A stretch of DNA of 64,000 nt from Schmidtea nova (lineage: Eukaryota): assembly GCA_044892505.1 (NCBI GenBank), contig CM097883.1, positions 439,952,001 to 440,016,000 of the forward strand, read 5' to 3'. Each line of letters begins with the position of its first letter. Position 1 is the first letter of the stretch. Below are positions 2,871-61,432 of the stretch, one piece after another. The notes under the pieces are model-generated. The model was not told where the DNA came from. It made no database searches and saw only the letters and a program-made list of their open reading frames with translations. Position numbers and translations under genes: made by a program.

Positions 2871-5339
2871 ATGAATTATACTTTTATTGATGAAATAGTC
2901 ATTTTTTCAGTGTGGTGGTTGGCTGTAGGTGCTGTTATTGAATGAAACGGTTCTTTTCTATGCAAGTAGTATGATTAATCATATAGGATTTAGTTGGATG
3001 AGTTGTACAATTTTATCCGTGGTATGCTCGATTGCAGGGTGTTCATGGATGGATGAATTTATTCTTAGGTTCCTGGGATTGTTGTGTATTACGGGTGTTG
3101 TTACAAAAACCATTAACGATTTCTAGGGGTTAATACGACCCATACCGCAACATAAACATCAATCTACCACACACGTGTACATATAGTTACTCCCCAATTT
3201 ACTATGTTGGTACTGTACTCGGTGGCGAGCATTCAGTGAGTAGGTGGGCTCCGTTTCCGAAACTACTCCTCACTAAATTCTCTCTTTCGGGTTCTTGCTG
3301 CCGATAGAAGGACATACGCATCTACTTACTTTTCGGTTCTCTCACATAATTGCATCATACTTATCTATCAACAAATGTCGTAATCTATCTACCTTTATTC
3401 CTTCTCAAAAACTTTTATAAAATGTTCCTATCTACTTTTTCATTAGCATAAGATAAATGTAAACTAAGCTAGTTCACCGAGAAGGAGATTTCGATTCAAG
3501 GCCTCTTTTCGCGATACAATGAAGTGATTTCGTGATTCCTTTTGTACTATGAAGATGAGGTTTTGGTAAAATATGAAGATGAGGTTTTGGTAATAATGGC
3601 GATTTAAGGTGCGAGCACTTCGTTTTTGTACAGATGTTAATAAATTTTCGATTTGTGTAAATTTGGACGTCATGTAGGTTGATATAAATACATATAAATA
3701 CTATATTATAATAAAATATTAGTTTGCGTCTTGGAATACTGTAATAGGATTCTAGACGTTTATGTAGTTTGAAAAGTCCTGCCCTTAGTCAAGCCATTGT
3801 TCCCCAACATCAATGTATGGGATGAAGAGATCATGGGTGTGTGGACCTCATCTTAGATATAAATATGGGCTGGTCGGTTGATGGGCCTCAAGCGAACAGC
3901 GATCCAACTAGGCTACTTCCGTCAGTACAGCACATAGCACAGGACTGACGTCAGAATGTATGGAAAGCGAAAATAATATTATTTATGATAATATATAAAT
4001 AATGTTTAAGATTTAAATTATGTATAATTCGAGTCAATTTGGTAAGAATTTGTGACAGTAGTTTAACAATAAAACTAAATAAGAATACCTTTAAAAATAT
4101 TGTATCCTATTACCAAATTTATAAAGCTCCTGAATAAAATAATAATAGAAGGTAAGAAAAATAATAATAAATAATTTTAATTCATATATAATCATACGTA
4201 CATATAATTATCAATAATAAAATTAAAATCAATAAAAATATAATACTTCACATGGGTAGCAAAGGCATGACTCGCTAGCCATGTTCCAAAATTCAAGACC
4301 CTTACATAAATTAGTGATCATGTGAATTTCGATTGTTTGAGTGATAATTTCTTCAGGATCCTTTGACGTATTTCAGTAGCGCCTGTCCTGACTTATCCAA
4401 ACTGAAAGTCTAAATTGAAGTCCTCCTCGACGAAGATTAAATAGGGTAGAGGTTTTTGGTAATCACAAATTCATCTGTGAACTCTGGTCAAAAGTTTTTG
4501 CAGAGTTTTGCTTAATGAAAAACTTCATTGGTCGGAGTCGCAAAATTCTCCTGATTATGATTTTGATGGCGGTATATATTGGGGTTTTTGTCTGTTGTTT
4601 TCGTTAATGCATTAAAATAAATTGTTCTAGAAGGAATTTTCGATTCTTCCGAAATTTAATTATATAATTTTAAGCAAAATTAAATTATTATTTTTGCATA
4701 AAATTTTAAAAAACTTTAAATTGTTTATTTTTAATCTAAAATTTTACTTTTAAAATAAAGTTTTTTTTGAATTTAGTTTAATTTCCTGAATTTTTATCTA
4801 AAACAATTTCCCTTAATATTTTATGAGATTTTATGGTAAAAATCGAAATTTTCCTTCTAAAAAATATGCAAATTGTTTCTGATTTATAATTTTATNNNNN
4901 NNNNNNNNNNNNNNNNNNNNNNNNNNNNNNNNNNNNNNNNNNNNNNNNNNNNNNNNNNNNNNNNNNNNNNNNNNNNNNNNNNNNNNNNNNNNNNNNNNNN
5001 NNNNNNNNNNNNNNNNNNNNNNNNNNNNNNNNNNNNNNNNNNNNNNNNNNNNNNNNNNNNNNNGCGCTTTTGTTCATTTTAATTTTAAACGTATTTTATT
5101 TAATTTTTCAGGTGTTTTGTGATTACTGTGTTATACTTGGTGTTTTAAATCATAGAATTTTAAATTTACTTCTTGCGTGCTCTCTGCATGATGTGTTACG
5201 GCTCCATTATAACAAATCTCAGTTTTGCCCAACAATATTAATTCATAAATAATTTAAAATAAATATTTTTAAAAAAATGCCTTTTGTCATTAATTAATTA
5301 TGGTAATAAAAATAAATTTAAGTTTAAGTTTACATTGAA

Positions 5340-5618: not shown

Positions 5619-7114
5619 GATTTCAATTCTAGTTAATGTTTTTTCATTTCAATTTAATTTTTATAATTAATTTTCGTAGTTTTTCATTTCAAAATGGTAT
5701 ATTTTCATTTCAAATTGATTTTATTTCACTTCGATTTAATTTTAATTTAAAGATAGTAATAAAATAAACAGTACCATGGAAAATTGGAATGGAAATACCG
5801 AAGAGCAACCGGAAGAAAGGGAATTGCTTGCTGATGCGAATTCTTCGCTGCCAAATGCTGACAATGAGAATTCAAGCAATTCCACAAACAGAAGAGGCCA
5901 GTATAATCGAATAGCAGAGAAAACTAGATCAAGAATCATACATTCTCATCAAAGTGGTAATTCAGTAAAAGTAATTGCGGAATATGAAATGCTGAGTGTT
6001 TCAACTGTTAGAAATATCGCGAATAAATTTATTGGACGGGAAGAGTAGCTTCTCTGTCGCGGGGAGGCAGTAAAAACGTTAAAATCAATGATGAAATGAA
6101 ATCATTTATTTTGGGTCTTGTTGATAAGGATTGTTCAATCTCACTGAGGCATATCCAAGGAAAACTGAAGGAAAATTATGACATAAAAATTTCAATATCA
6201 ACCAGATTCTATTGCCTGAAAAATATTCATTATACACTTAGAAAACTAAGTCCGATACCAACAAGACGTAATGACGCTAGATCGATTGAATTGCTAAGGG
6301 TCTACGCTGCAAGATATTTGGAAATTGAAGAGTCTTATGCCGGAGAAGATATTTCTTTCTTAGACGAAGTTGGATTCAATGTATCTATGAGATGCAAGAA
6401 GGGACGCTCAATCGTTGGAAGTCCAGCAAATTTAATCGTTCCGAATATTCGTTCTAAAAATTTATCTGTGTGCAGTGTTATGACCAAGAATGGCTTGGTG
6501 TTTTGGAAGTTGAGCCACTTACCATACAACACCGCTTCTTTTGTTGGATATGACGATGAATTCGCTGACTATATCGTCGATCGCAATGTTATGAATTGTG
6601 TACTGGTGATGGACAATGTGGCGTTTCATAAGAGCGCACGAATAATGGAATTGACGTTTACGCGGAACATTCGAGTTGAATTCCTCCCGCCTTATTCACC
6701 TTTCCTGAACCCAATCGAGAATTTATTCTCGAAATGGAAAGATTTTGTAAGACGATCTAACCCAATGAATGAAGAAGAACTAATGGTAGCAATGAATGAT
6801 GGATTGAGAACCTTGAGCCAAACTGATTGTGAGGGCTATTACAAGAATATGAAAAAATATATTCGTTTATTAATACAGGGACTTGAAATTGTGGATTAAA
6901 AATAGTTTTATGCTTAATATAAGCTTTTAGAAACCATTGTTTTGCTAATTTTTTATCGCCTATAGTATATTTTCAACATGTGTTGTATTAAAATTAAATC
7001 GAAGTGAAATAAAATCAATTTGAAATGAAAATATACCATTTTGAAATGAAAAACTACGAAAATTAATTATAAAAATTAAATTGAAATGAAAAACATTAAC
7101 TAGAATTGAAAATC
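5619..7114 (+). mobile_element. Tc1/IS630-like DNA transposon with ~128-bp terminal inverted repeats
   Basis: 5619-5746 is the near-perfect reverse complement of 6987-7114. The TIRs contain internal TTTTCATTTCAA sub-repeats and enclose a transposase. Confidence 0.9.
5776..6899 (+). pseudogene. DD34E transposase split by one frameshift (HTH ORF 5776-6048, DDE ORF 6096-6899)
   Basis: Motifs FLDEVGF, VMDNVAFH and FLPPYSPFLNPIE, with 34 residues between the second D and E. The two ORFs join in frame if 1 nt is restored near 6030-6040 (reading ..TGRVASLSRGGSKNVKINDEMKS). Confidence 0.9.
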
Positions 7115-18678: not shown

Positions 18679-18884
18679 TGTTAAATTATATTCAAATAAA
18701 AACTGCTTCCGTAATAATTTGTCTTATTCGAACAAATTTCAAATGGCGAATTAATCAATTAAATAATAACGACAATTATGCGTGCCAGCATTTATACTTT
18801 TAATAATTTGACTATATAATAAAATTGATTACTTATAATACAATATATGTTATTTATAAAATAGTTAATTAAATATCCCTAACA
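18679..18884 (-). repeat. 3' LTR (206 bp)
   Basis: Direct repeat of 20594-20799 with 3 substitutions seen by eye. Ends TGTT..AACA. Confidence 0.92.
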
Positions 18885-19625
18885 TGCCCCTTGTTTAAAA
18901 GGTTTTAGCCATTCAACGTTGCGGACCATCATTTTTTCATCTCTGTCTCGTAATTCATAGGTATTCTCATGTATCTTTCTAACAACCGTAAAAGGTCCGA
19001 TATATCGGTCGTCCTCGTTTTTTCTCACATCTACTTTAACCAAAACTTCTTCATTTATATCAAATTTTCGGTGTATCCGGTTCTCATTTTTATAACTTAA
19101 ATTTCTTTGTTTTGATTGTATTTCGACCACTATTTTACTTCTATCGTTGTATCTTCTATTATTATTGTTCCATTCTCTAGATATCCGGAAACCAAATACT
19201 GCTTCTGAGGGGCTCTTTCCAATTGTGCTTTGAATAGTTTCATTTAAACTAAATTCGATTTCAGGTATTACTTCAACCCAATTTCTCTTAAGTTTGTCTT
19301 TTAATGACGTACTGATAAAATCTCGTATTGTTCGAAATTGTCTTTTAATCAAACCATTAGTATTATGATGACAAGGGCTCGAAAATTGTAGCTGTATATT
19401 GTGATTCTTTGTCAACTCTTTTATCAAGTTAGACTCAAATGTTTTGCCACAATCAACTTGAATAATTCTATGTGACCCATATTTTAATATCCATAATTTC
19501 ATAATAGTATCCGCTGTAGTTTTTTCATCTTGTTTTGCAACTGCTGTTAACGAAACGTATCGACTATACATGTCAATAATTCCCAAAATATATTTTTTCC
19601 ATGAATGTTTGTATGTAAAGGTCCA
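18879..19625 (-). pseudogene. Retroviral-type integrase core and GPY/F-like C-terminus, lacking the N-terminal HHCC finger
   Basis: Motifs D-x-x-GPL, GIIDMYSRYV, IQVDCGKTF, SSPCHHNTNGLIKR (expected catalytic E appears as K) and RYIGPFTVVRKIHENTYEL. The stop codon falls inside the LTR. Confidence 0.88.
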
Positions 19626-20593
19626 CTCTCGTCTGCGTATCTTCTTCTGTCTGCCTGGTTCCAGTATTGAAATCGCAAATGCCCTCTTCTACCGCATCCT
19701 GAGCAAGATATTGATGGACATTCTCTTCTATTATGTCCGATATCTTTACACGCGAAACATCTCATCTCTGCATTCGATGCTCTCTGATTGCACTCTCTGG
19801 ATTTGTGCCCTTCTTTTCCACATTGGAAGCATTTCTGAATCCTTGGTTTCCGACATTCTCGACTCATATGACCCACTTCCTGGCAATTCCAACATGTAAT
19901 AACTGGTCTGTTTCTAGCAGGCATTTCTCTTTGTTAGAAGTTATTCAGGTTGTTATCTGCTTTTATCATCGGTCTTGAATCATATCTTTGTTCAATCCTT
20001 TCTGTATTTGTAAAATTTCGCCTTTGGTTCTGTCTATCGGCAAATCCCTGTCTTGCTTTGACAATATTCGCAAATGTTTCTTTCTTTCTATTTAAAACTG
20101 AAATTCTCGACGCTTCAATATTTATATCATTGACCTTCTTTATCACTCCTTTTATTTCATCGACGCTTATCGCATCTCTCATCTTTATTTCTTTCTGTGT
20201 ATCTTTGTCTTTGATACAATGGACCAAAAAATATGACATCAATTCTTTCTTGTCCCATTTGTGTTTTAGAACTTGGTCAACCATCTTTTCTATTTTTTCA
20301 AAATATAGTGGGGCAGTATCCTCGTTTTTTTCGTAATTGCATCGGGTTAAAAAATCCCCTATCAGCGTCGTTGGTTTCTTGAAAGCCTTTTTCAATCTGT
20401 CTTCAAAGCAAGTTTCATTTTCTTCTATTGCTTCATACATTGGTAACAATTCTCTTTCGATCAAACATTTGATCATTATATTTTGGCTGGACTGTTCTAG
20501 TCCACATAATTGGAAATATCTCTTGCATTCTCCAATAAATATTTCTACATCGACGCTGCCGTCGTAAATATCTGGGATCATTTTATTGATCAT
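19547..20593 (-). pseudogene. gag: Gag (capsid-like region + 3-4 CCHC zinc knuckles) with in-frame TAA at 19934-19936
   Basis: ORFs 19934-20593 and 19547-19924 are in the same frame, separated by TAA CAA AGA GAA. Knuckles: CWNCQEVGHMSREC, CFQCGKEGHKSREC, CFACKDIGHNRREC and degenerate CSGCGRRGHLRFQY. Confidence 0.85.
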
Positions 20594-20799
20594 TGTTAAA
20601 TTATATTCAAATAAAAACTGCTTCCGTAATAATTTGTCTTATTCGAACAAATTTAAAATGGCGAATTAATCAATTAAATAATAACGACAATTATGCGTGC
20701 CAGCATTTATACTTATAATAATTTGACTATATAATAAAATTGATTACTTATAATACAATATATGTTATTTATAAATTAGTTAATTAAATATCCCTAACA
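20594..20799 (-). repeat. 5' LTR (206 bp)
   Basis: Direct repeat of 18679-18884. It is followed immediately by the gag ATG at 20593. Confidence 0.92.
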
Positions 20800-20815: not shown

Positions 20816-21583
20816 TTAATCAATTTTTATTAAATATAAAATAGCCTGCAGAGTATGAACTTCTGTCACTGGATCCACAAAGTTATACTTGTGACAGACA
20901 GTTCGATGTGTAAAGCCCTTTGCAGGCAAGCGGCTGTAACTCCGATGTTCATCAGTATGGATAATACTTCCCTCCACAACATGCTCACATATAACAGGTA
21001 TTATGGTATCAGCACGCTTATCAGGTATCATCTGTGCCCATACCTTTGCGACGCAACGATTGCATTCAACAATACAGAGGGCATCCATTCTGTTTTCAGG
21101 TGAACGACCCTTATGACTTTTGCATTTGTAATTGAGCGTGGTTTCGTCCACTTGAACAACAGTCCCGGCGCCCCCTAGCTTAGTCAAAAGTTTGTTGGAT
21201 GTTTTAATTCTGTCGATTAACAATGCGTTTATCTTGCTATATGTCGGCGAAGATATGCGTATGTCTCTAAGAATTGAACATCGAGTTTGTCCATTGGAAA
21301 TATGAATAAGCACTTTAAGTACTTTCTTCGTTTCTGTTGCCAATGATTCGAAAAATGAGCCATCTCTAACAGACCTTCTCTTTTTGTAGGCTTTGCATTT
21401 GTTGGAATAACACCTCCAAACCATATCAATGGCATAACTCTTTGACTCTTCAAGCTTAAGAGATGACCCACATGAACTCAGGCATTGCATGCTGCGGAGG
21501 AAGTAACTATGCTGAAACATCCAGGTAATTAACGACTTTTTAGGCATTGTAATAACTGATTCTTCCAATATTTCCAAGTTCAT
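20816..21583 (-). pseudogene. Merlin/ISXO2 (IS1595-like) DDE transposase, C-terminally truncated
   Basis: Motifs VVQVDET, IPDKRADTIIPVI..V..GSIIHTDEHRSY..L, HRTVCHKYNFVDPVTEVHT. The expected following xxIExxW motif is missing. Confidence 0.85.
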
Positions 21584-22963: not shown

Positions 22964-23613
22964 TAATTTTATCTAATATAAGTATCTAAGACCTTATAAA
23001 TAAACATAATTAGCCGGCTTCAGGCAACAGATAACGAACTTGTTCTATAAATTTAACTAATTCTGACAATGGAGATTTCGTACAGTCTGTTGGGTTTATT
23101 TTTAAGCCGATATAAATTTCTGACTTCTCGTGCTCTTTTCAAGAATAATTAAAGTCACCCAACACAATAACTTTATTTAAGTTCAACACAAAATCTACAA
23201 TTAGTAATAACACTTAAAGTGCTCTGCACTTTTCTGGCGTTAGGAGAAAGTCTTACAACGAGAGATCCCCTTTCTGGTATGCAGTAGTTGATTTGATGTG
23301 GGTGATACTATTTGTCTGTTATGCCCTCCTCTTACTAACCTTTTTGGATCACTTTAAAAAAATGGTCTTTGACAAACTGGCGAGATTAATGACTTTGTTT
23401 CTTATTTTTATAATGCTTCCGTAAATTCAATGAATTTCCCTATTGAATAATTGGTCAGCGTCTCTCGATCAATTTGTCTAAAAAACAAATATGTCATTTT
23501 AGCTTCGGGTTCCTCTTAACGCTCGGATTTTTCTTTTTCCCAAGGTTTTTCCCGATAATTAATTTATTCGAGGTAATTGGTTTATCTGTTTTTCACTCGG
23601 GCTTCCTCTACAA

Positions 23614-24319
23614 TGCAGTTTACACATATCGAGCCAATTGTTTCCTTCTGTATCAATTCTTACTTGCCAAATAAATGTAATGGAAATGGCTGCATGTATT
23701 GCAGATTTTGTTCAAGGTAAGACAGAAGAACTGGAGTTAGAAATTTTGGAACTTAAGAATGATATTTTGCTAAAATCCTTAATATCAAAGGACTTTTGGA
23801 ATACAGTGGACAGAGAAAAGTTTCCATTTTCTAAAAAAGCGGCATTTAAAATTGAATCATTTTTTGGTTCGACATATTTATGCGAATCATTATTTTCACA
23901 TATGAACTTAATAAAATCAAGAAATAGATCTCGACTCACCGATGAGCATCTGTATGATTGTTTGCTAACAGGATTATCGTCATACTCTCCTAATTATGAG
24001 GAACTGGCCAATGATATGCAATGCCAAAGATCACATTGACATATCGATAATATATTTTTTATAAAATGTTTTCTTCGTATTTGTGTTTTTTGTTTACGTT
24101 TTGTAAATACATTTCTCTGAGTGTATGTAATTTGAATAATAATTTTATTATTTTGAAACATTTTTGTTTATTATTTATTAATAAATTATGAATATAAGAA
24201 AAAAAATTATGGGAATGAGAAGTTATGGAAGGAGTTTGTTGATTAAAAATAGGTGGTGCCCGTCACCCTACCGATATTTTAGAATGTGCTCTAGAGTACA
24301 AAAAGGTTGGGAACCCCTG
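23614..24319 (+). mobile_element. 3' fragment of a hAT (Charlie/SPIN, GTF2IRD2-like) transposon
   Basis: ORF 23638-24039 contains FGSTYLCESLFSHMNLIKSRNRSRLTDEHL..CQRSH*. Right TIR AAAAGGTTGGGAACCCCTG ends at 24319. Flanks CTCTACAA (23606-23613) / CTCTACAT (24320-24327). Confidence 0.85.
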
Positions 24320-40025: not shown

Positions 40026-41444
40026 ATGCGTTAATATAAATAGGTTATGAATTNNNNNNNNNNNNNNNNNNNNNNNNNNNNNNNNNNNNNNNNNNNNNNN
40101 NNNNNNNNNNNNNNNNNNNNNNNNNNNNNNNNNNNNNNNNNNNNNNNNNNNNNNNNNNNNNNNNNNNNNNNNNNNNNNNNNNNNNNNNNNNNNNNNNNNN
40201 NNNNNNNNNNNNNNNNNNNNNNNNTAGGCTATAATTAATAAAGACAACTACCACCTATGTTTTTATTTTATTACATACTGCATTCGAATGGAAAAAATAT
40301 AAAATTAATGATATAACCAACAGAATAGAATAATAGCAAAAATTTACTAAAACTGCTCCCCATTAAAGGCTTTATCCAGATATAACCTCATATGGCCATA
40401 GAATTCGTCAAATACAATGCCTGCATCATCGTTTATCTCTGATATCGCGCTTTGGACATAATTTTTTATCGTTTCGGTAGAATCAGGTATGGGCCTTCTG
40501 TGGAAGTATCTACTTTTCAAACACCAAAAGAACTCCTCTATTGGGTTCAATCGAGGAGAATACGGCGGAATAAAATCGTATGAAATATTGTTTTCTGCAA
40601 AAAATTGCCGAACTGACGTGGTCTTGTGGAATGATACATTATCCATGAGAACTATCTTATCGCTTCCGAAAAAATTCATGTTTAAATATTCCCTTAAAAT
40701 AAGCTTATAACTTTCTGAATCATACACACCGACTATATTTTTGCAATATAAAACCTTCTCGTTCGAAATTAGACACATACAACTAATATTCGGCCGCGTG
40801 GAGGGGACAGGAACATTTACTGGCACGTTCTTCGGAGAATAACCATACTAATACATGGTATGCAGTTTAAATCCCGTCTCATCAAGGTACAAAAGGCGAG
40901 AGTTTGGAATATTTCGGTATTTTATTGCAAATGCTTTTCTTTCCAAAATAATTCTTTGTTCTGCCACACGATTCGAAATCTTTTTAATTTTTTTTCGCGT
41001 AATATTGAGTTTTTTCAAATTCCCGGAGACTCCAAATTGAGTAATACTTATTCCATTTTGTTCCAGTTGTTGAATAATTCACCTCTGGGTAGTACGAGGT
41101 TCATTTTGTACGGCCTCCGAAATTTTAATCATGGTATTGCTTAAGTCCTTGACATGACGACTTTTTCTTTTAATTACTGCGCTATAATCAACATCTTTTT
41201 CGTCACATTCTCTTATTTTTTGAAGTGCTTTATAGACAGTCGGTGCAGATATATCAAGTGAAACGGCGATTTTGTCAATTTTATCTCCTTGTAATCGCAT
41301 AATTTTTATTGTTTTAAGATCTTTAGCCAAAATCGCAGTTCTGTGCTTTCTTGAGCGGTCAGTTGATTCGTTATAGTGATTCTCCATTTGCATGGTCTCT
41401 AACTTTGAAAAATATTTCTATAGATTATTTATTTTTTATCATAA

Positions 41445-50800: not shown

Positions 50801-52318
50801 GGAACAACAGAAAAATAATTATTTTTCTTCAATACATAATATAACAAACATATTATTAAATGTTACCGGTAGAATTTATTTTGCTAATACCATGCGTCCA
50901 TTTGATCAAGCAACTTGAATCCAAAAAATGTTTATTTTATCTATAACACAATCGTATAACCAAAAGATATTGAAAATTAATAAATATGGGTTTACCCAAT
51001 GATGCTCTGAGAAACAAATACTGTTCTTTTCTAAAATTCTCAGTTATTGCTCCAATGACAAGTTCTGGTTTTGTCTGTTTTCTGAGTCTATATTTTTCAT
51101 GAACTCTCTATTTTTCTGGTGCTGGTCGTATTATTGCCTCTTCTTTACTAGCATTTTGTATCACATCGAATTATTAGTTAAATCTAAAAAATAAATTGGA
51201 TTTTCTCGACTAAGAATGCCACCAGCAGTGGTTTCCTAAAATCATAATTATTAAGAAAAATGGCTGTCAAATTATTTAACTGAGCCTCGTTTTGACAGAC
51301 TGCCAATGTGTTAGTTGCAATTGTCAATATTATTTTCTTTAGGGGATTATCGCCAATACATTTTGAATAATTAATTTTATTGGTGTACTAGAGGAAATCA
51401 TCTCGGTAGCAACCTCGTAACTATTGTGAAACCACCAGTTGCCGGTCACAAAGCAAAGTTGGTAATATGACTAATGGATCGATACTCTCAAAAAGTGAGC
51501 GCTGTTTTCAGAACTCTGATTGGCCGAGTATCTCCATGGGTTCAAAAGCTTTCGACAGAAGACCTATGCTCAATTAATTTATGGTTCCTATATTTGCTGA
51601 GAGAAAATAAAATTTGAATGTTAATTTAACACAATATTCCTTAAATAATTATGAAAAAATTCTTTATCGTCAATACTTATATTATAAAATATTTCAATAT
51701 TTTATTTTCAAAACATATTTCAAAATCATACTAATAGAGCGTAAATCATAATAATGATATTTAAAACAGGCATTCACATGACACAAAAAAATTGAAAGAA
51801 TAAAAATTAATCAAGATATTTATATTAATTCAAAATATTGAAATCTCAATCAACAGTTAAGTCTGACTCAATTTTAAAGTTTTTTACAACTTATTAAAAA
51901 GCACTTGAAAAAGGCAGTGCGAAAAATTTGTGTTGTATAGAATATATTTTTAGATCTATTGTGTTTAGGTCAGTTTCATTTGTCATTCCAATTTCATTAT
52001 TTTCAATATATTCAAGTAAAGTTTTTTGATGGCCAATTTGGCATAAATGTTAAAGTTTTTCGCTACACCAACATTTTTCAAAAACATAAATATAACACTA
52101 AATTCATTTCTCTGTTTTGTTCATTTTATAGAAAAGAGTAAAGCAAAAATAATACAACTGATATAAAGCGAAATATTATTTTATAAACTTCAATTAAATC
52201 ACTAATAAATTCTTCGAAATTATTTATTCTTCAACTTTTTATATAATCACTTTAACATAACATTACAATTCAATTTTCAGAAAATATCACTTCAAATTGT
52301 AAACTACTGTTTTATTTA

Positions 52319-53517
52319 AGTAGGGGATAGTGAGGACTCGAGCACAGTTTTTTCACATAGCAACGGTTGCTCAGGTTAGTACACACACATCAATATATAA
52401 TCCCCGAAGAACACGTTGCCAGGGTAAATACACACACATATATCAATTTATAGTCCTAGTGAAATATGTTGCTAGGGTAAACACACACCAATGTATTTTC
52501 TTCGAGGAAACTGTTTCCAGGGTAAATACACGCAATAGGGTGACTTCCCTGAGGACCTTGTTGCTTGGGTAAACATACATACATACACATCAATATATAA
52601 TTCCTAATGATAGATGTAGTTAAGGTAACTACACACAGCAATATATAGTCCCCGAGGAAGATGATGTCAAGGAAAATACACACAACAATATATAATCCCC
52701 GAGGAACCTGTTGCCAGGGTAAACACATATCAATATATAATCATCGAGGAACCTTTTGATAGAGTAGACACACACATTAAAGTATTGTCTCCTTGGAACC
52801 TGTTGCTAAGGTAAATACGCCATTGTGTAACGACAGTTACTACTGTTGGTAACATCAAAACATGCAACACATTAATTATTACCCGTAACACACACGATAA
52901 CATGTTTTTACTTAATCGAACGACGTTTTTGTTTTAATGTACTGACTAACATTTCGAATAGTTTTTTATTAATTGATAATTTTTGATATATTATATAATT
53001 TTTGTAAAATGATCTTTAGAAAATCGAATATGAGAACTTTGAAAACGGATGAAATGAATGCGAGAATTGTGACAATAGTCGAAATTTTAAAGACGATTCT
53101 ACAGAGTGCAACTACAAGAGCAGATGAAATTTAATAATATTTGTAAACAGAAACAATTATTTTTACATTAAATAAAAAGATTGACACAAAAAAAAAATGA
53201 AAACCCTGAACAATAAAACCGTTTGAAATCTTGACAATACATAAAAACTTTAAAAATAATTAAACATAATAAACTAAAGAAATATAAAACTAAATATAAT
53301 GAAACCAATTATTTTTTTTTAACAAAGTTTTATTCAATACAAATCTGAATTGGATATTTAATTTGAATTGAGAGCTGGATCTGAAACTGGAACACCAACC
53401 TGATCTTTTGATTGGTCTATAAACGAGCCACATCCCTTATAATGTCCGTATGCAAGACTTTCATTTTTATCAACCCAAAGTCTTTTATCATCAAGATTAG
53501 TCAAGGCAATTTTCGAA
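52319..53517 (+). repeat. Left terminal inverted repeat (1,199 bp)
   Basis: Reverse complement of 59045-60243 with no indel (both end-coordinate sums equal 112562). Contains a ~43-bp minisatellite at ~52370-52820. Confidence 0.92.
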
Positions 53518-53560
53518 TATTTATTAGTAAAGAGTTGATGATTTTTACTCACAAATCGAG
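53358..53560 (-). pseudogene. C-terminal fragment of Polinton protein-primed DNA polymerase B
   Basis: TRFVSKNHQLFTNKYSKIALTNLDDKRLWVDKNESLAYGHYK matches the Polinton pPolB C-terminal pattern R-S-x-x-H-x-x-x-T-x-x-x-x-K-x-A-L-x-x-x-D-D-K-R...T/S-L-A/P-Y/W-G-H-Y. Copies occur at 58821-59034 (-) and 59045-59204 (+). Confidence 0.8.
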
Positions 53561-53628
53561 TCTGTTCTACTGAAACTATAGTATTATTTCTAAGTAGGTA
53601 GATGTGTGGAGCCGGGAACAAAGACATT

Positions 53629-53730
53629 ATGACTCATCGATGACTAATAACAAAGACATACCCCCCTCCCCTCCCCCCGGGGTTAGAAATTTTTTTATGA
53701 CTCATCGCGATGACTCATCGATGACTCATT
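53629..53730. promoter_or_regulatory. Cluster of AP-1-type ATGACTCAT motifs (4 copies)
   Basis: ATGACTCAT near 53629, 53697, 53710 and 53721. Confidence 0.5.
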
Positions 53731-53789
53731 TCAAATTCAAATTTTAAATTTGAATTTCCAAAGGTCAAATAAGGTCAAACCTTCAAACA

Positions 53790-54860
53790 AGGGTATCATT
53801 CGAAAGGTCTTGGAGAGGTCTATCCAATGTTCATACCCTCGAAGGCTTATGGAGGGTTCTTGACCGTCGAAGGGTCAAAAACCTTCAACCTTTTTCAAAC
53901 CTTATAATATACATATCATTCGAAAGGTAATTGAGAGGTTAGTAAGATGGTCATACCCTCGAAGGTGTATGGAGGGTCCTTAACCTTCAAAGGGTCAAAA
54001 ACCTTCAACCTTTTACAATCCTTATAATATACATATCAAACAAAAGGTAATTGAGAGTTAAGTATGTTGGTCATACCCTTGAAGGTGTATGGTGGGTGCT
54101 CAACCTTCAACCTTTTACAATCCTTATAATATACATATCATTCGAAAGGTAATTGAGAGGTAAGTAAGATGGTCATACCCTCGAAGGTGTATGGAGGGTC
54201 CTTAACCTTCAAAGGGTCAAAAACCTTCAACCTTTTACAATCCTTATAATATACATATCAAACAAAAGGTAATTGAGAGGTAAGTAAGATGGTCATACCC
54301 TCGAAGGTCTATTGTGGGTCCTCGACCTTCGAAGGGGTCAATAACCTTCAACCTTTTTTAAACATTATAATATATATATCATTCGAAAGGTATTTGAGAG
54401 TTAAGTAAGATGGTCATATCCTCGAAGGTGTATGGTGGGTGCTCAACCTTCAAGGGGTCAAAAACCTAGAAATTTTTTCAAACCTTATAATATATATATA
54501 TCAAACAAAAGGTAATTGAGATATGCACACAATGGTCATACCCTCGAAGGTCTATGGTGGGTGCTCAACCTTCAAAGGGTGCAAAACCTTCAAAAAATTT
54601 TAAACATTACAAGTTATATATTAAACAAAGGGTAATTGAGATGTACACACAATGGTCATACCCTCGAAGGTCTATGGTGGGTGCTCAACCTTCAAAGGCT
54701 CCAAAACCTTCAACCTTTTTCAAACCTTATAATATATATATATATATATATATCATTCGAAAGGTATATGAGAGGTAGGTATGCTGGTTATACCCTCGAA
54801 GGTCTATGGTGGGTGCTCAACCTTCAAAGGGTGCAAAACCTTCAAAAAATTGTAAACATT
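53790..54860. repeat. Tandem array of ~120-bp units (about 9 copies)
   Basis: The core TCATACCCTCGAAGG recurs near 53831, 53951, 54071, 54173, 54293, 54414, 54536, 54656 and 54790. Units contain CCTTCRAAGG palindromes. Confidence 0.9.
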
Positions 54861-54865
54861 ACAAA

Positions 54866-55010
54866 TTTTTTTTTCGCGCCAAAAATTTTTTTCAAAATTT
54901 TTTTTCGCGCCAAAAATTTTCAAATTTTTTTTTCGCGCCAAAATTTTTTTTTTCAAATTTTTTTTTTTGCGCCAAAATTTTTTTTTCAAATTTTTTTTCG
55001 CGCCAAAAAT
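54866..55010. promoter_or_regulatory. Five tandem E2F-like sites (TTTTCGCGCCAAAA x4 plus one TTTTGCGCCAAAA)
   Basis: Directly visible, spaced ~30 bp apart in A/T tracts. TTTCGCGC is the classical E2F consensus. Function is inferred. Confidence 0.55.
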
Positions 55011-55111
55011 TTTTTTTAAAATTTTTTTTTAACAAATTTTTTTAACAAATTTTTTTTAACACAAATTTTTTTAACACAAATTTTTTTTAACACAAATTAA
55101 ATTTTTTATTT

Positions 55112-55210
55112 TTATGACTCATAGATGACTCACCATTATGACTCATCCTTATGACTCATCGATAACTCATTTCAATTTATAAATAAGTCACGTCATCGGT
55201 AACTCATAAC
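55112..55210. promoter_or_regulatory. Second cluster of AP-1-type motifs (3 perfect ATGACTCAT plus variants)
   Basis: ATGACTCAT near 55114, 55138 and 55151. Variants ATGACTCAC, ATAACTCAT and GTAACTCAT, plus TCACGTCAT. Confidence 0.5.
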
Positions 55211-56300
55211 AAAGACATTGCAATCCATGTGCAAAATTAACAAAGACATTGCAATCCATGTGCAACATTAACAAAGACATTGCAATCCACATGCAACGTA
55301 AACAAAGACATTTCATTACCAAATTTAATAACAAAGACGTTTCATTGCCAAATTTCATAACAAAGACATTTCATTGCCAAAAAACTAAACAAAGACATAT
55401 CAATACCAAAATAACTAAACAGAGACACGAACATTTACTAGCAGAACATTTACTATCAGAACATTTACTATCAGAACATCTTTTGTGATGGTTTTTATCT
55501 GCCAAAGCTTATTACTCGAACATTTATTACAATTCAAAGATTATATATGTACTCTTAAACATAGAAATTTTTCATAACAAAGACATATCATTGCCAAAAC
55601 ATCTAAACAAAGACATTTCATTACCAAAAACACCTTAACAAAGACATTTCAATGCCAAAAATAACTAAACAAAGACATTGCAATACATATGCAAGTTAAC
55701 AAAGACATTGTAATGCAGATACTAGTTAACAAAGNNNNNNNNNNNNNNNNNNNNNNNNNNNNNNNNNNNNNNNNNNNNNNNNNNNNNNNNNNNNNNNNNN
55801 NNNNNNNNNNNNNNNNNNNNNNNNNNNNNNNNNNNNNNNNNNNNNNNNNNNNNNNNNNNNNNNNAATGTCAAAACACCTTAACAATACAGATGCAAGTTA
55901 ACAATGACATTGCAATACATATGCAAGTTAACAAAGACATTGCAATACATATGCAAGTTAACAAAGACATTGCAATGTGGATACAAGTTAACAAAGACAT
56001 ACACACAAGTTAATAAAAATATTCAAGGGTTCAAAATTTTTTAAAACTACATAAATATCATGCGAAAGATATTTGAGATGTGTGTGTGTATATTTTCAAA
56101 CCTTCAAGATGTCAAAATAAAATAAAATAATAAAACTACCACAACGTAATATATTTTTATTTTCCTACCCATTTTGACACTGCAATTCATATGCAATATT
56201 AACAAAGACATTGCAAAACAGATGCAAGTTAACAAAGACATTGCAATACAGATGCAAGTTAACAAAGACATTGCAGTTGCAAGCCAAGTTAACAAAGACA
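55207..56300. repeat. ~30-bp tandem repeats with AACAAAGACA core
   Basis: Unit AACAAAGACATTGCAATACATATGCAAGTT occurs in several blocks (55207-55430, 55575-55734, 55890-56000, 56195-56300). Confidence 0.88.
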
Positions 56301-56398
56301 AGATGTCAAAAAAGACTAATTATTATTAATCACAAAGTGCATTCTCTTAGCCAATGATAAAAATAAATTAAATGAAAATACATATATTTTGTATGACA

Positions 56399-56893
56399 TT
56401 ATATGTATATCACATGATATTCATCAATATTAATACCACAAGACTCACACTTATCAATATTTTTTAAACATTTTGAACAAATAATGACATGTCCACAAGG
56501 TAAATATAAAATGCCAACTCTATTTATATTACATATTGAACATGTGAGAAATCTTTGTTTGATTTCTTCCAATTTCTTGGTTACATTTACCTCTAAAATA
56601 TTCACATTCAGCATGAAAGTTCGAATAATAGTACGATATTTTCCATGTCGAAATTCCATACATGACCAGAAAATGGTATTCAAATTGAATTCAGTAGAAT
56701 CGATATCATTAAGAATCATAAAAAAACTGGATAATTTCATCATGGATTTATCATATCCGAATGATTCTGTTAAACCAATAATTAATTTATTATTGAAGGA
56801 TTTGAATAATTTTGAAAGAATGTCGATATCGCATTTCTCAATCGATGTTAAAAGGTCATCAAGTATTAAAAAGGATTGGATCCAATTATCCAA
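56399..56893 (-). CDS. 164-aa protein with C-terminal IAP/MDM2-type C3HC4 RING (putative E3 ubiquitin ligase), Polinton cargo
   Basis: CSIC-x11-CGH-x3-CSKC-x6-CESC followed by a hydrophobic tail (IDEYHVIYI). Intact and intronless. No BIR domain is visible. Confidence 0.85.
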   Translation of the reverse strand: MDNWIQSFLILDDLLTSIEKCDIDILSKLFKSFNNKLIIGLTESFGYDKSMMKLSSFFMILNDIDSTEFNLNTIFWSCMEFRHGKYRTIIRTFMLNVNILEVNVTKKLEEIKQRFLTCSICNINRVGILYLPCGHVIICSKCLKNIDKCESCGINIDEYHVIYI

Positions 56894-57802
56894 AGTAATG
56901 AAATTATCTGTAACCTAGTTTAAAATAATTAATTTAAATATATATTTTTAAAACTAACTTTATTTGTTTCTTTATTTGTTTCTTTATTCATTTTCGTCAA
57001 TCAATACTATTTACAAGTTGTATTTATATTGCAAAAATCAACCAATTTAATAACCAACCATTTTATTGACCAACCAATGATTGAAAGTTTTTGCTAAACT
57101 GTTACATTAAAATGATGATAAGGGACATTGAAAATTAGGTAACAATATATTTATTATTAAAAATATGTTCAAGTAATGAGCTTTTGCACATAAAAACCAT
57201 CACAGAATAGGTTCTGCTACTAGGGTTCTGCTCGCAATGTTCTGCTACTAAATGTTCGGTCACTATGACAAATACATGAAAAATTATCATACTATTGAGA
57301 TAATCACACAAATAATTCTTAAATTATAGTACAAATATATCAAAAATATATGAAATATACATTACATACTTGAAATATTATCACAAAGTATCATTACATA
57401 CATGAAATATCTACATACTTGCTCAATTACACAGAAAATCATCAAAGTTACACACAAAATATGAAAAGTATATAGAAATTCGTCACATACAAAAACACCG
57501 TATATATGAAATATTATCAAAAATACATAGAAATTTATCACACACGTACAAAATATCACCATACTATAGTGTATAACTATACATACAAAATATCAGAAAT
57601 ACAAACATACATAAAATTTCATCTTACTATAGTTTGATAACATAGAAATACATGAAATATCCTCAAAATACAGAAACTTTCACAGATATATAGATTCATC
57701 ATACAAAATATCATATATATAAGAAATATCATTACAGATTATGACATGCATGAAATATTGTTATTATAGTGCAAATTACATAGAAAATAGCAAAGATACA
57801 TG

Positions 57803-59034
57803 AGTAGGGGATAGTGAGCGCTCGGTACCACTTTTTTCACATAGCAACGGTTGCTAGGGTAAATACACACATTATTATGTAATCTCCGGGGAAGAAGTTG
57901 CTAGGGTAAACACACACATCAATATAAATATTCCCCGGGGAACCTGTTGCCATGGGTAAATACACGCTTTAAAGTGTAGTCAATTAAAACATGTTGCTAA
58001 GATAAACACGCGCGTATAGAGTCCCCAAGGAACCTGTAGTTAAGGTAAACACACACACATCATTATATATTCACTGAGGAACCTGTTGCCAGGGTAAACA
58101 CACACACATCATTATATATTCATATAGCCAGATGTTGCTAAAGTTAACACATACACATCAATATATAGTCCTGGGGAAGATATAGTTAAGGTAAACACAC
58201 AGATCAATATATAGTCCCGGGGTAAATACACACATTAAAGTATACTCTCCCTGTAACTATTGCTAAGGTAACCACATGTGTTAATATTTAAGTCCTGAAG
58301 TAACTATTGCTAAGATAAACACACCATTGTGTAACCCCCATGACTACTGTTGGTAACGTCAAAATACACAACATATTAATTATTATCCGTACCACAAACG
58401 AAAACATGTTCTTTACTTAATTAAATGAAATTTTTGTTTGAATGTACTGGCTAACATTTTGAGTAATTGTTTTTTAACTGATAACTTTAGAAAATCGAAT
58501 GTGGCAACTATGAAAACAGATGGAATTAATTCGAGAATTGTGACAATAGTCAAAATTTTAAAGACGATTCAACAGAGTGCAACTGCAAGAACAGATGAAA
58601 TTTATTAATATTTGTAAACAAAAACAATTATTTTTACAATAAATAAAAACGAATTACACAAATCCTTAAAATATTACACTAATCAGGTGAAAACCCTGAA
58701 CGATAAAACCAATTCAAATCTGGACAACACATAAAATTTTTAAAAACAATTAAACATAACAGTCTAAAGAAATATAAAACTAAATATAATGAAACCAATT
58801 ATTTTTTAACAAAGTTTTATTCAATACAAATCTGAATTGTATATATAATTTGAATTGAGAGCTGGATCTGAAACTGGAACACCAACCTGATCTTTTGATT
58901 GGTCTAAAAACGAGCCACATCCCTTATAATGTCCGTATGCAAGACTTTCATTTTTATCAACCCAAAGTCTTTTATCATCAAGATTAGTCAAGGCAATTTT
59001 CGAAAACTTATTAGTAAAAATTTGATGATTTTTA
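57803..59034 (+). repeat. Internal diverged copy of the Polinton terminus
   Basis: Starts AGTAGGGGATAGTGAGCGCTCGG and is colinear with 52319-53545, with many substitutions and indels. It ends in a hairpin with loop 59022-59027. Confidence 0.9.
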
Positions 59035-59044
59035 CTAATAAGTT

Positions 59045-60243
59045 TTCGAAAATTGCCTTGACTAATCTTGATGATAAAAGACTTTGGGTTGATAAAAATG
59101 AAAGTCTTGCATACGGACATTATAAGGGATGTGGCTCGTTTATAGACCAATCAAAAGATCAGGTTGGTGTTCCAGTTTCAGATCCAGCTCTCAATTCAAA
59201 TTAAATATCCAATTCAGATTTGTATTGAATAAAACTTTGTTAAAAAAAAATAATTGGTTTCATTATATTTAGTTTTATATTTCTTTAGTTTATTATGTTT
59301 AATTATTTTTAAAGTTTTTATGTATTGTCAAGATTTCAAACGGTTTTATTGTTCAGGGTTTTCATTTTTTTTTTGTGTCAATCTTTTTATTTAATGTAAA
59401 AATAATTGTTTCTGTTTACAAATATTATTAAATTTCATCTGCTCTTGTAGTTGCACTCTGTAGAATCGTCTTTAAAATTTCGACTATTGTCACAATTCTC
59501 GCATTCATTTCATCCGTTTTCAAAGTTCTCATATTCGATTTTCTAAAGATCATTTTACAAAAATTATATAATATATCAAAAATTATCAATTAATAAAAAA
59601 CTATTCGAAATGTTAGTCAGTACATTAAAACAAAAACGTCGTTCGATTAAGTAAAAACATGTTATCGTGTGTGTTACGGGTAATAATTAATGTGTTGCAT
59701 GTTTTGATGTTACCAACAGTAGTAACTGTCGTTACACAATGGCGTATTTACCTTAGCAACAGGTTCCAAGGAGACAATACTTTAATGTGTGTGTCTACTC
59801 TATCAAAAGGTTCCTCGATGATTATATATTGATATGTGTTTACCCTGGCAACAGGTTCCTCGGGGATTATATATTGTTGTGTGTATTTTCCTTGACATCA
59901 TCTTCCTCGGGGACTATATATTGCTGTGTGTAGTTACCTTAACTACATCTATCATTAGGAATTATATATTGATGTGTATGTATGTATGTTTACCCAAGCA
60001 ACAAGGTCCTCAGGGAAGTCACCCTATTGCGTGTATTTACCCTGGAAACAGTTTCCTCGAAGAAAATACATTGGTGTGTGTTTACCCTAGCAACATATTT
60101 CACTAGGACTATAAATTGATATATGTGTGTGTATTTACCCTGGCAACGTGTTCTTCGGGGATTATATATTGATGTGTGTGTACTAACCTGAGCAACCGTT
60201 GCTATGTGAAAAAACTGTGCTCGAGTCCTCACTATCCCCTACT
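59045..60243 (-). repeat. Right terminal inverted repeat (1,199 bp)
   Basis: Mirror of 52319-53517. The ORF track shows identical mirrored ORFs (52330-52572 vs 59990-60232; 52456-52728 vs 59834-60106). Confidence 0.92.
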
Positions 60244-61432
60244 TATTTATATTTAATATTTTTTGCGAAATTAGTTATATTATTTATTATCATAATTATC
60301 TTTTTTCACCTTTGATCTTTTTTTATTATTATTATCAATAATTCTCATAATGACTATAGATCAAAATTTTGATCTTTTTTTATTATTATTATCAATAATT
60401 CTCATAATGACTATAGATCAAAATTTTTTTTATTTATTATAAATTTATTTTAAAAAGTTTTTTTTTAATTTTAACTAAATTTTGGTCACATTGCTATTTC
60501 AATATTGTCTTAAAACTTTAAAAAATATGAATTTATTATTAAGCCTTATTAAAAATGATCAAAAATGAACATGTTGAATACTAAAAATAGTGATGAGAAT
60601 GAAAATTCTAACAATTCGTTGCAACAATTGTCAAAATTATGTATTTTAGCATATTTACTCTTTTAAGCAGTTCTGCATTAGATTTATCATTAAATGCTTT
60701 ATTCATTCTGCATTACAGTAAACATCATATACTACATATTTAATTTTCATTTTTTAAAGACTATATCAAATTTTTTTCAAAAGGTACACGAATTTTTTGA
60801 AAAAAGTTTGATCTAGTCCATAAAATAAAAATTTCTGATTTAGAAAAAAAAGATCAAAGGTGAAAATAAGAAAGTATTAATAATTGTTTAATGCTATTTT
60901 TCATATTAAGTAGAAGTGTAAAGCAACTATCATGACATTTAATTTAATTAATTAATAAAAAATATTTTTCATTTTTGAAATTGAAATTGAAATTATTTTT
61001 ATCATAATCTTTAATATTCCTTACGTTTTATTTTATTTGATTACATTTATTCATCAGAAAAAATATTCTGTAATGCAAAACAAATTATCGACACTGTTTC
61101 TTTCAAACGTCAATTAACTTTTATGAAAAATTACTTTACCAAATTTTGGCGGGCACTGTCTAATATATATTGTAATGCACAAAAATTGTCATAATTGTCA
61201 TTTTTATAATTTTGATATTATGTTGGTGGCGCCGTCATTATTATCGTCGGTGCCCTCGCGGTCACCGAGGACCCCCCTTTTTGTGTTTTGTTTGTAGGAA
61301 AATAATTATCTTTTAAATAATTTTAATTCGAAATTTGAATTTGGCTTACTATGGCAAATGCTGTAGTAAGCCAAATAACAAATTAAAAAATATTGATTTT
61401 AGAAATTAAAAATTGGAATAAATTATTTGCGA

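Follow-up and report, generated by a model that had tools for sequence, protein, structure and literature searches.

Closest described systems

Ends of the AG...CT type and 6-bp target duplications are hallmarks of Polintons (Mavericks; adintoviruses or polintoviruses). Here we analyzed a 64,000-nt stretch of the Schmidtea nova genome (contig CM097883.1, positions 439,952,001 to 440,016,000; in the following called the window), in which a region from 53593 to 56300 is packed with tandem AP-1, E2F and Sox-type words. This region is the terminal inverted repeat (TIR) of a high-copy Polinton family, and its words probably bind host factors that would aid transcription and copying.

Snap-back or defective interfering viral genomes are near-perfect palindromes that have no genes but retain the cis signals of their termini. 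The adenovirus inverted terminal repeat (ITR) starts with a core origin, behind which lie sites for NFI, NFIII/Oct-1, Sp1 and ATF, with differences between lineages (PMC2685984; papers are cited by PMC number throughout). In the homologous regions (hrs) of baculoviruses, cAMP response element (CRE) and TPA response element (TRE) words between palindromes serve as both enhancer and origin (PMC13513840).

The family studied here shares with described Polintons the AG...CT ends, the 6-bp duplications and TIRs of ~1 kb, and its autonomous relatives have PolB, an rve integrase, an A32-type ATPase, an adenain protease and a predicted double jelly-roll capsid. In contrast, the window's own subfamily is without core genes and consists of arms of ~8 kb around a 0.75-kb loop. 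Like the adenovirus ITR, the region would belong to a linear protein-primed replicon in which host-factor sites varying by lineage follow a short terminal core (PMC2685984). That ITR, however, measures 212 bp with single sites in the example given there, whereas here tandem arrays of 1–3 kb, with putative sites for other factors, stand in thousands of integrated copies. With the hrs the region shares tandem repeats in which TRE and CRE words cluster, but the hrs lie inside a circular genome and their 30-bp palindromes work with the viral protein IE1 (PMC13513840). Neither an IE1-like gene nor a 30-bp hr palindrome unit was seen here; the units of this Polinton end are direct repeats of a different build. 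The palindromic subfamily is gene-less and near-perfect and keeps its terminal cis signals, as snap-back genomes do, but its palindromes have been integrated, with target duplications, and make up a stable subfamily (262 loop-marker copies).

The motif region is a Polinton terminus

A first-pass annotation, made from the letters of the window, had described a virus-like enhancer cassette inside a Polinton that might couple transcription or replication to S-phase, stress or stem/germline states. The DNA is indeed that of a Polinton, and the adenovirus ITR and baculovirus hrs provide, by analogy, a close viral precedent for an enhancer or origin helper, but the region is not internal. A genome search with 53590–53800 gave 901 candidates, and all 40 scored ones start at query bases 1 to 4. 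Base 53593 opens AGTAGGTAG, and the exact 21-nt end was found 6,652 times in the genome. Target duplications of 6 bp were scored at other copies (the window's own arm is truncated) and were present at four of five paired ends in one set, the fifth having palindromic flanks, and at 11 of 11 in another. Because the copies begin at 53593 and paired ends carry these duplications, the motif region is a terminal repeat, and an internal cassette is ruled out.

Terminal inverted repeats with AG...CT ends are present in the family copies, and one of ten whole copies (L039/L040) matched in the outer end only. Behind this terminus lies the PolB C-terminus in eight of the ten whole copies, which were drawn from the first 100 listed ends. 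The autonomous copy L021/L022 has a 1,431-aa polymerase-like frame that is 64–66% identical over 660–690 aa to frames at PF03175 matches; the L021 frame itself gave no PF03175 match in hmmscan. It further encodes an rve integrase split in two frames (PF00665, E=2.6e-8), an A32-type packaging ATPase (PF04665, E=6.1e-7) and adenain, an adenovirus-like protease (PF00770, E=5.3e-6). The predicted model of a 407-aa protein (pLDDT 90.6) folds like iridovirus and PBCV-1 capsids, with an iridovirus capsid as best structural match (E=1.6e-16, TM 0.65), and identifies this protein as the double jelly-roll major capsid protein. These genes fit the Polinton gene set in PMC6431247 and PMC4028283. Autonomous copies also encode a TBP-like one-repeat protein (L022:6096-6587, plus strand; PF00352, E=9.5e-14; 50 relatives), which is not a novelty, as such genes are already listed for adintoviruses (PMC8502044).

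Arrangement and counts of the motifs

All motifs are contained in the cut-off left terminal arm of a gene-less palindromic subfamily of the AGTAGGTAG family, delimited by copy alignments to 53593–57802 on the plus strand, the strand of all following features unless stated otherwise. The arm is collinear with L011, L013 and L016 as far as 57803. Its outermost segment (53593–53637) comprises the terminus, whose 21-nt end is repeated genome-wide, the first AACAAAG (53617) and the first AP-1 word (53629); it is likely the integrase end and, as we infer, the core origin. From 53640 to 53690 follow a degenerate AP-1 word, a second AACAAAG, a poly-C/poly-G tract and an A/T tract; at this place, most family ends have an EGR-type word instead. 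AP-1 cluster 1 (53697–53729) consists of three ATGACTCAT with spacers of 4 and 2 nt. Next come a variable pair resembling a direct repeat with 4-nt spacer (DR4; 53762–53777), a duplicated half-site in a block common to the sister clade G/C, and the 120-bp array (53794–54845, 8.8 copies), also common to clade G/C, with five of the arm's six TCF-type words in a recurring position. The E2F array (54862–55029) has a 31-bp period with four exact TTTCGCGCCAAA and one variant, and is adjoined by related A/T-tract units without the CG core (55019–55098). AP-1 cluster 2 (55114–55172) has three perfect and two variant words with unequal spacers. Four arrays of 29–31-bp units, each with the Sox-type HMG word AACAAAGACA, occupy 55207–56300, including an N run at 55735–55864. 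Across the motif region, the tandem array periods are thus 11–13, 120, 31 and 29–31 bp.

All motif counts in the first-pass annotation were borne out. The AP-1 word ATGACTCAT occurs seven times, always on the plus strand (53629, 53697, 53710, 53721, 55114, 55138 and 55151), and nine times in the whole window. Two clusters were correctly recognized, but the second lies after the E2F array, so that the E2F array is bracketed together with the 120-bp array. The E2F word TTTTCGCGCCAAAA is present in four copies (54871, 54902, 54930 and 54995) plus one variant at ~54965, the spacing of ~30 bp noted before corresponding to the 31-bp period; a word count found it nowhere else in the window. AACAAAG, for which more than a dozen cores in ~30-bp repeats had been noted, occurs 23 times on the plus strand within 53600–56300 versus 30 times on that strand of the whole window, and all 20 window copies of AACAAAGACA fall in the motif region. 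It is an HMG word, as annotated, but by consensus is better read as Sox-type than as TCF. Apart from the E2F 12-mer, the CRE core and the labels TRE and CRE, motifs are named here by their likeness to general consensus words. The E2F match holds, because TTTCGCGCCAAA has the same letters as the E2F probe from the DHFR promoter (PMC3205837, PMC2784457); unlike the DHFR site, it is arrayed here at 31-bp spacing in A/T tracts and has 30,145 genome copies.

The chance of each word per collapsed repeat unit was calculated with a dinucleotide model from window positions 1–52000. It amounted to ~1e-4 for the AP-1 9-mer and ~3e-6 for the E2F 12-mer (1e-7 per position); AACAAAG had a chance of 0.009, and a TCF word within a 120-nt unit one of 0.022. 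After collapsing of the repeats, AP-1 and E2F hence stay improbable, AACAAAG less so, and the TCF enrichment is weak. One exact DR4 copy exists at the annotated position. The pair arose as a 10-nt tandem duplication of a single half-site, which makes its spacing automatic. In a sample biased to window-like copies, DR4 was exact in 25 of 37 blocks and altered in 12, eight of them by one shared change; with only three exact copies among the 51 unselected ends described below, it was ruled out as a family feature.

Recurrence in family ends

To this comparison we submitted 51 ends, one per element, chosen without regard to likeness to the window. At least three AP-1 words were found in 42 of them, at least two E2F words in 29, at least five AACAAAG in 40, the EGR-type word in 32 and the 120-bp array in 11. 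The AP-1, E2F and AACAAAG arrays are therefore kept across copies and clades, whereas DR4 is rare. The perfect EGR-type word, GCGTGGGCG, stands right behind the first AP-1 word (e.g., L021:96-104) at 4,654 ends in the genome; the window's palindromic subfamily is without it.

AP-1 clusters are inverted in most autonomous ends compared with the window. Among the clustered AP-1 sites of the family, 241 of 274 keep TGASTCA, and eight spacer types are common to three or more elements. In 13-bp arrays of the sister clade (five arrays, three elements), 60 of 75 units preserve the whole AP-1 9-mer, with a column variability of 0–0.15, while the 4-nt spacer occurs in 11 forms with a variability of 0.24–0.59. 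For AACAAAG, 50 unit types are common to three or more elements, and variability is 0–0.06 in the 10-nt core versus 0.16–0.58 outside when units are anchored on the core itself. Judged from these alignments, stricter retention of the motif than of neighboring bases appears positive for AP-1 only.

Tallied genome-wide, whatever the carrier, the E2F 12-mer occurs 30,145 times versus 57 times in reversed form, and AP-1 doublets 63,596 times versus once. Arrays of the E2F 12-mer also lie away from listed family termini, at C1:1293792-1295137, 1847611-1848190 and 2345715-2346449.

Ends of other clades

The polymerases form four PolB clusters, 68–76% identical between clusters, with a common end layout: AGTAG is followed by 25–65 unique bases, then by a C tract and an A/T tract, and lastly by clade-specific repeats. 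A subfamily of 552 ends has the first 29 bases as in the family, followed by clusters of ATTACGTAAT, which we take to be a PAR-bZIP-type palindrome, where others have AP-1 clusters (L069:80-270). In clade G/C, TRE and CRE palindromes are mixed, and a clade D end (L049:2630-3788) has ~30 TGACCT half-sites, 19 of them fitting the ROR-type consensus.

We scanned eight arms with a panel of 32 consensus motifs, drawn up after the sequences were seen. The real arms gave 14 amplified hits of nine motif kinds; three letter-permuted controls gave 4 hits of 3 kinds, 5 of 3 kinds and 3 of 2 kinds, and among 42 other 1-kb windows one had an amplified hit. In L205, L206, L059 and L060, ends of one clade lie beside the polymerase or genes of another, which suggests recombinants or nested insertions.

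Proposed host-factor sites and alternative explanations

The terminus, the target duplications, the autonomous relatives, the family-wide arrays and the gene-less palindromic subfamily are observed directly, and so is module exchange: the DR4 block and 120-bp array of the palindromic subfamily recur in the sister clade, whose PolB is 71–74% identical, and modules have therefore been exchanged between clades. For the arrays as a whole, we lean toward an exchangeable set of host-factor sites, by analogy with the auxiliary sites of the adenovirus ITR or with baculovirus hrs. The outer 25–45 bases and the C/G tract would form the core end, behind which slippage and recombination would produce arrays. 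Competition among copies would then select arrays built of host-factor sites, for help in transcription or protein-primed replication. Because the genes beside the ends point outwards, such arrays would act as enhancers or origin helpers rather than as proximal promoters; a role as promoter of a neighboring gene is unlikely, as the RING frame, PolB and the right-end frames are all directed toward the ends. The window's subfamily has shed its core genes and folded back into a palindrome of 16–17 kb, much as in defective viral genomes whose cis signals are retained and extended.

Several points weigh against host-factor sites. Binding and function are predicted from the sequence. No module is universal, E2F words being missing from 16 and AP-1 from 5 of the 51 ends, and four core-breaking AP-1 variants are common to three or more elements. 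Anchored on its flanks, the AACAAAG core is intact in 27 of 61 distinct units (reverse test, 27 of 103). In a private-versus-shared test, neither AACAAAG (p=0.60) nor E2F (p=0.47) nor the 120-bp unit reached significance; the outcome for AP-1 (32/30 vs 2/23) includes every site twice, once per strand, and has edge contexts mixed in. The motif panel is post hoc and its arms are not independent, as modules are shared; clades E and F have no amplified motif of this 32-motif panel, and the two arms with the 120-bp array account for 10 of the 12 control hits, for which reason the TCF call in that array is weak. The genome-wide motif counts reflect amplification, not independent origins. Finally, the Polintons of S. 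mediterranea are PIWI-silenced, and their tissue-specific derepression is ascribed to regional chromatin opening (PMC8532177).

Some of these observations also speak for neutral turnover, an explanation that we consider unlikely, in which slippage, fold-back and recombination breed repeats at Polinton ends, any short word multiplies together with the element, and motif likeness is due to chance and recent shared ancestry. Array numbers vary freely from copy to copy and, within a copy, from one end to the other, CG-core-less related units adjoin the E2F array, clades E and F are without clear motifs, permuted controls yield motif hits too, and the within-array tests are mostly not significant. 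Moreover, one giant-virus contig has evolved tandem ATGACTCAT in the form of a coding repeat; the viral contigs otherwise contained 0 E2F doublets and no capsid relative. Against neutral turnover stand three different bZIP palindromes that hold the terminal zone in different subfamilies, an AP-1 9-mer that is fixed while its spacers vary, per-unit chances of 1e-4 or lower for the AP-1 and E2F words, and real arms that exceed the permuted controls about threefold.

The arrays might instead be sites for the element's own proteins (polymerase/terminal protein, integrase, packaging or core proteins) or structural A/T-tract packaging signals, with an incidental likeness to host motifs. Such proteins act at the ends, where the arrays lie; the arrays persist in gene-less copies, which must borrow these proteins; several element frames had no family match in the domain scan; and the central loop of the palindromic subfamily has a 58-aa leucine-rich coiled-coil frame. 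However, the zipper matches of this loop peptide are weak (E 0.06–0.09), and no bZIP, HMG or E2F domain, as known to bind such words, was matched in the scanned element frames (13 frames in one scan; 37 in another, 36 of them chosen from 82 listed). In addition, AP-1 and PAR-type ends belong to PolBs of one cluster that are at least 88% identical, and G/C-type ends adjoin an E-type PolB (L205, L206); the arrays therefore change faster than the proteins, and we judge this explanation improbable.

It is very improbable, lastly, that host factors bind but repress or tether (as E2F/DP-Rb-type complexes or repressive bZIPs do), so that integrated copies stay quiet or are activated at set times: palindromic E2F and PAR-type sites can be read by repressors, and planarian Polintons are mostly silent and B-compartment enriched, but clustered AP-1 and EGR-type words are typical of activation, and planarian silencing is ascribed to Piwi-interacting RNAs. 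Furthermore, CRE/TRE counts in hrs follow enhancer strength (PMC13513840).

Beyond the preferred reading of exchangeable host-factor sites, a wider and tentative idea, which we hold possible but doubtful, is that Polinton clades in this genome compete via exchangeable enhancer cassettes at their ends, which together would spell a code for host states. Arrays of AP-1, EGR, E2F and Sox words would stand for wounded or proliferating tissue, and PAR-bZIP, ROR-type, Fox and RFX words for other states. Gene-less palindromes would amplify the cassettes, and 30,000 perfect E2F sites and 64,000 AP-1 doublets would be numerous enough to titrate host factors or to give rise to enhancers that respond to regeneration. 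In S. mediterranea, PIWI targets the Polintons, which acquire H3K4me3 and RNA in the course of differentiation (PMC8532177), stem-cell promoters are without enriched motifs, and Sox and EGR-type motifs are accessible in epidermis and brain (PMC10558129). These data weaken a stem-cell reading and an element-intrinsic tissue code.

Host-factor arrays in Polinton ends would thus be a viral design already known elsewhere, likely functional and seen here in a new form. No account of factor-motif arrays in Polinton ends was found in the paper listings searched or in passages of PMC8502044, PMC11414722 and PMC9341512. A cis-regulatory map of their ends, which would bear on how Polintons are activated and copied in animal cells, was not found there either. 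With its thousands of young copies and clade-specific, exchangeable arrays, this genome lends itself to asking whether the arrays determine the time and place of each clade's activity. Studies of planarian regeneration that rely on motif enrichment also have to reckon with tens of thousands of AP-1, EGR and E2F words at transposon ends, as signal or as artefact. Among 76 related loci from metagenomes, the 19 examined had no assembled terminal repeat. The contig end of a distant relative (L184:1-230) has short repeats with GACAAAG and one TGAGTCA word.

A gene-less palindromic subfamily

Window-type copies are palindromes of 16–17 kb with arms up to 99.9% identical, each with the RING frame described below. 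The window-type start has 809 genome copies, and the loop marker 262 exact ones. A search with 16 Polinton proteins gave no match to core genes in L011-L016, L029 and L030, and in the window itself only PolB C-terminal scraps of another family. The central loop (L011:8040-8799, L029:8268-9027) has a possible two-exon small gene ending in the leucine-rich coiled coil; its weak zipper matches do not support a bZIP. More giant palindromes made from Polinton halves were found in L035/L036, L041-L047 and L017/L018, some with two PolB genes. Giant palindromes suggest frequent fold-back replication.

Composite structure and surroundings of the arm

In the window, the motif-bearing arm is nested in a fragment of another Polinton, of a different family (A). 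The composite (52319–60243) has the 6-bp target duplication TATTTA on each side (52313–52318 and 60244–60249). The left arm of family A (52319–53592) contains a 1215-nt inverted repeat, 100% identical, with 59031–60245 and has at its end a minus-strand fragment of the PolB C-terminus. This fragment is 88% identical over 50 aa to the PolB of L054 and is interrupted by the insertion of the motif-bearing arm. Within the latter, an open frame with a C-terminal RING finger (56399–56914, minus strand; PF13920, E=2.1e-9) is directed at the terminus; it is found in both arms of full copies. A second, older A-type arm (57803–59021) cuts off the motif-bearing arm and meets the right arm of family A (59031–60243, minus strand) head-to-head at a short inverted repeat near 59025. 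As the composite junction occurs once in the genome, mobility of the composite as a family is ruled out. Truncated and buried as it is, the window copy has probably ceased to serve as a replicating end.

Family A ends, at 52319–53000 and 57803–58350, repeat Fox-like and RFX-like words in 45–49-bp units, with some COE-like palindromes. Elsewhere in the window, Tc1/mariner-like transposase remnants lie at 92–898 and 5746–6899 (by eye) and at 40347–41417 (DDE_3, E=3e-18). Gypsy-like gag, zinc-knuckle and integrase frames at 18879–20638 (minus strand) were recognized by eye and by a weak integrase match. An ISXO2-like transposase frame and hAT-like fragments were seen by eye at 20816–21583 (minus strand), 23563–24039 (plus strand) and 27648–29777 (minus strand).

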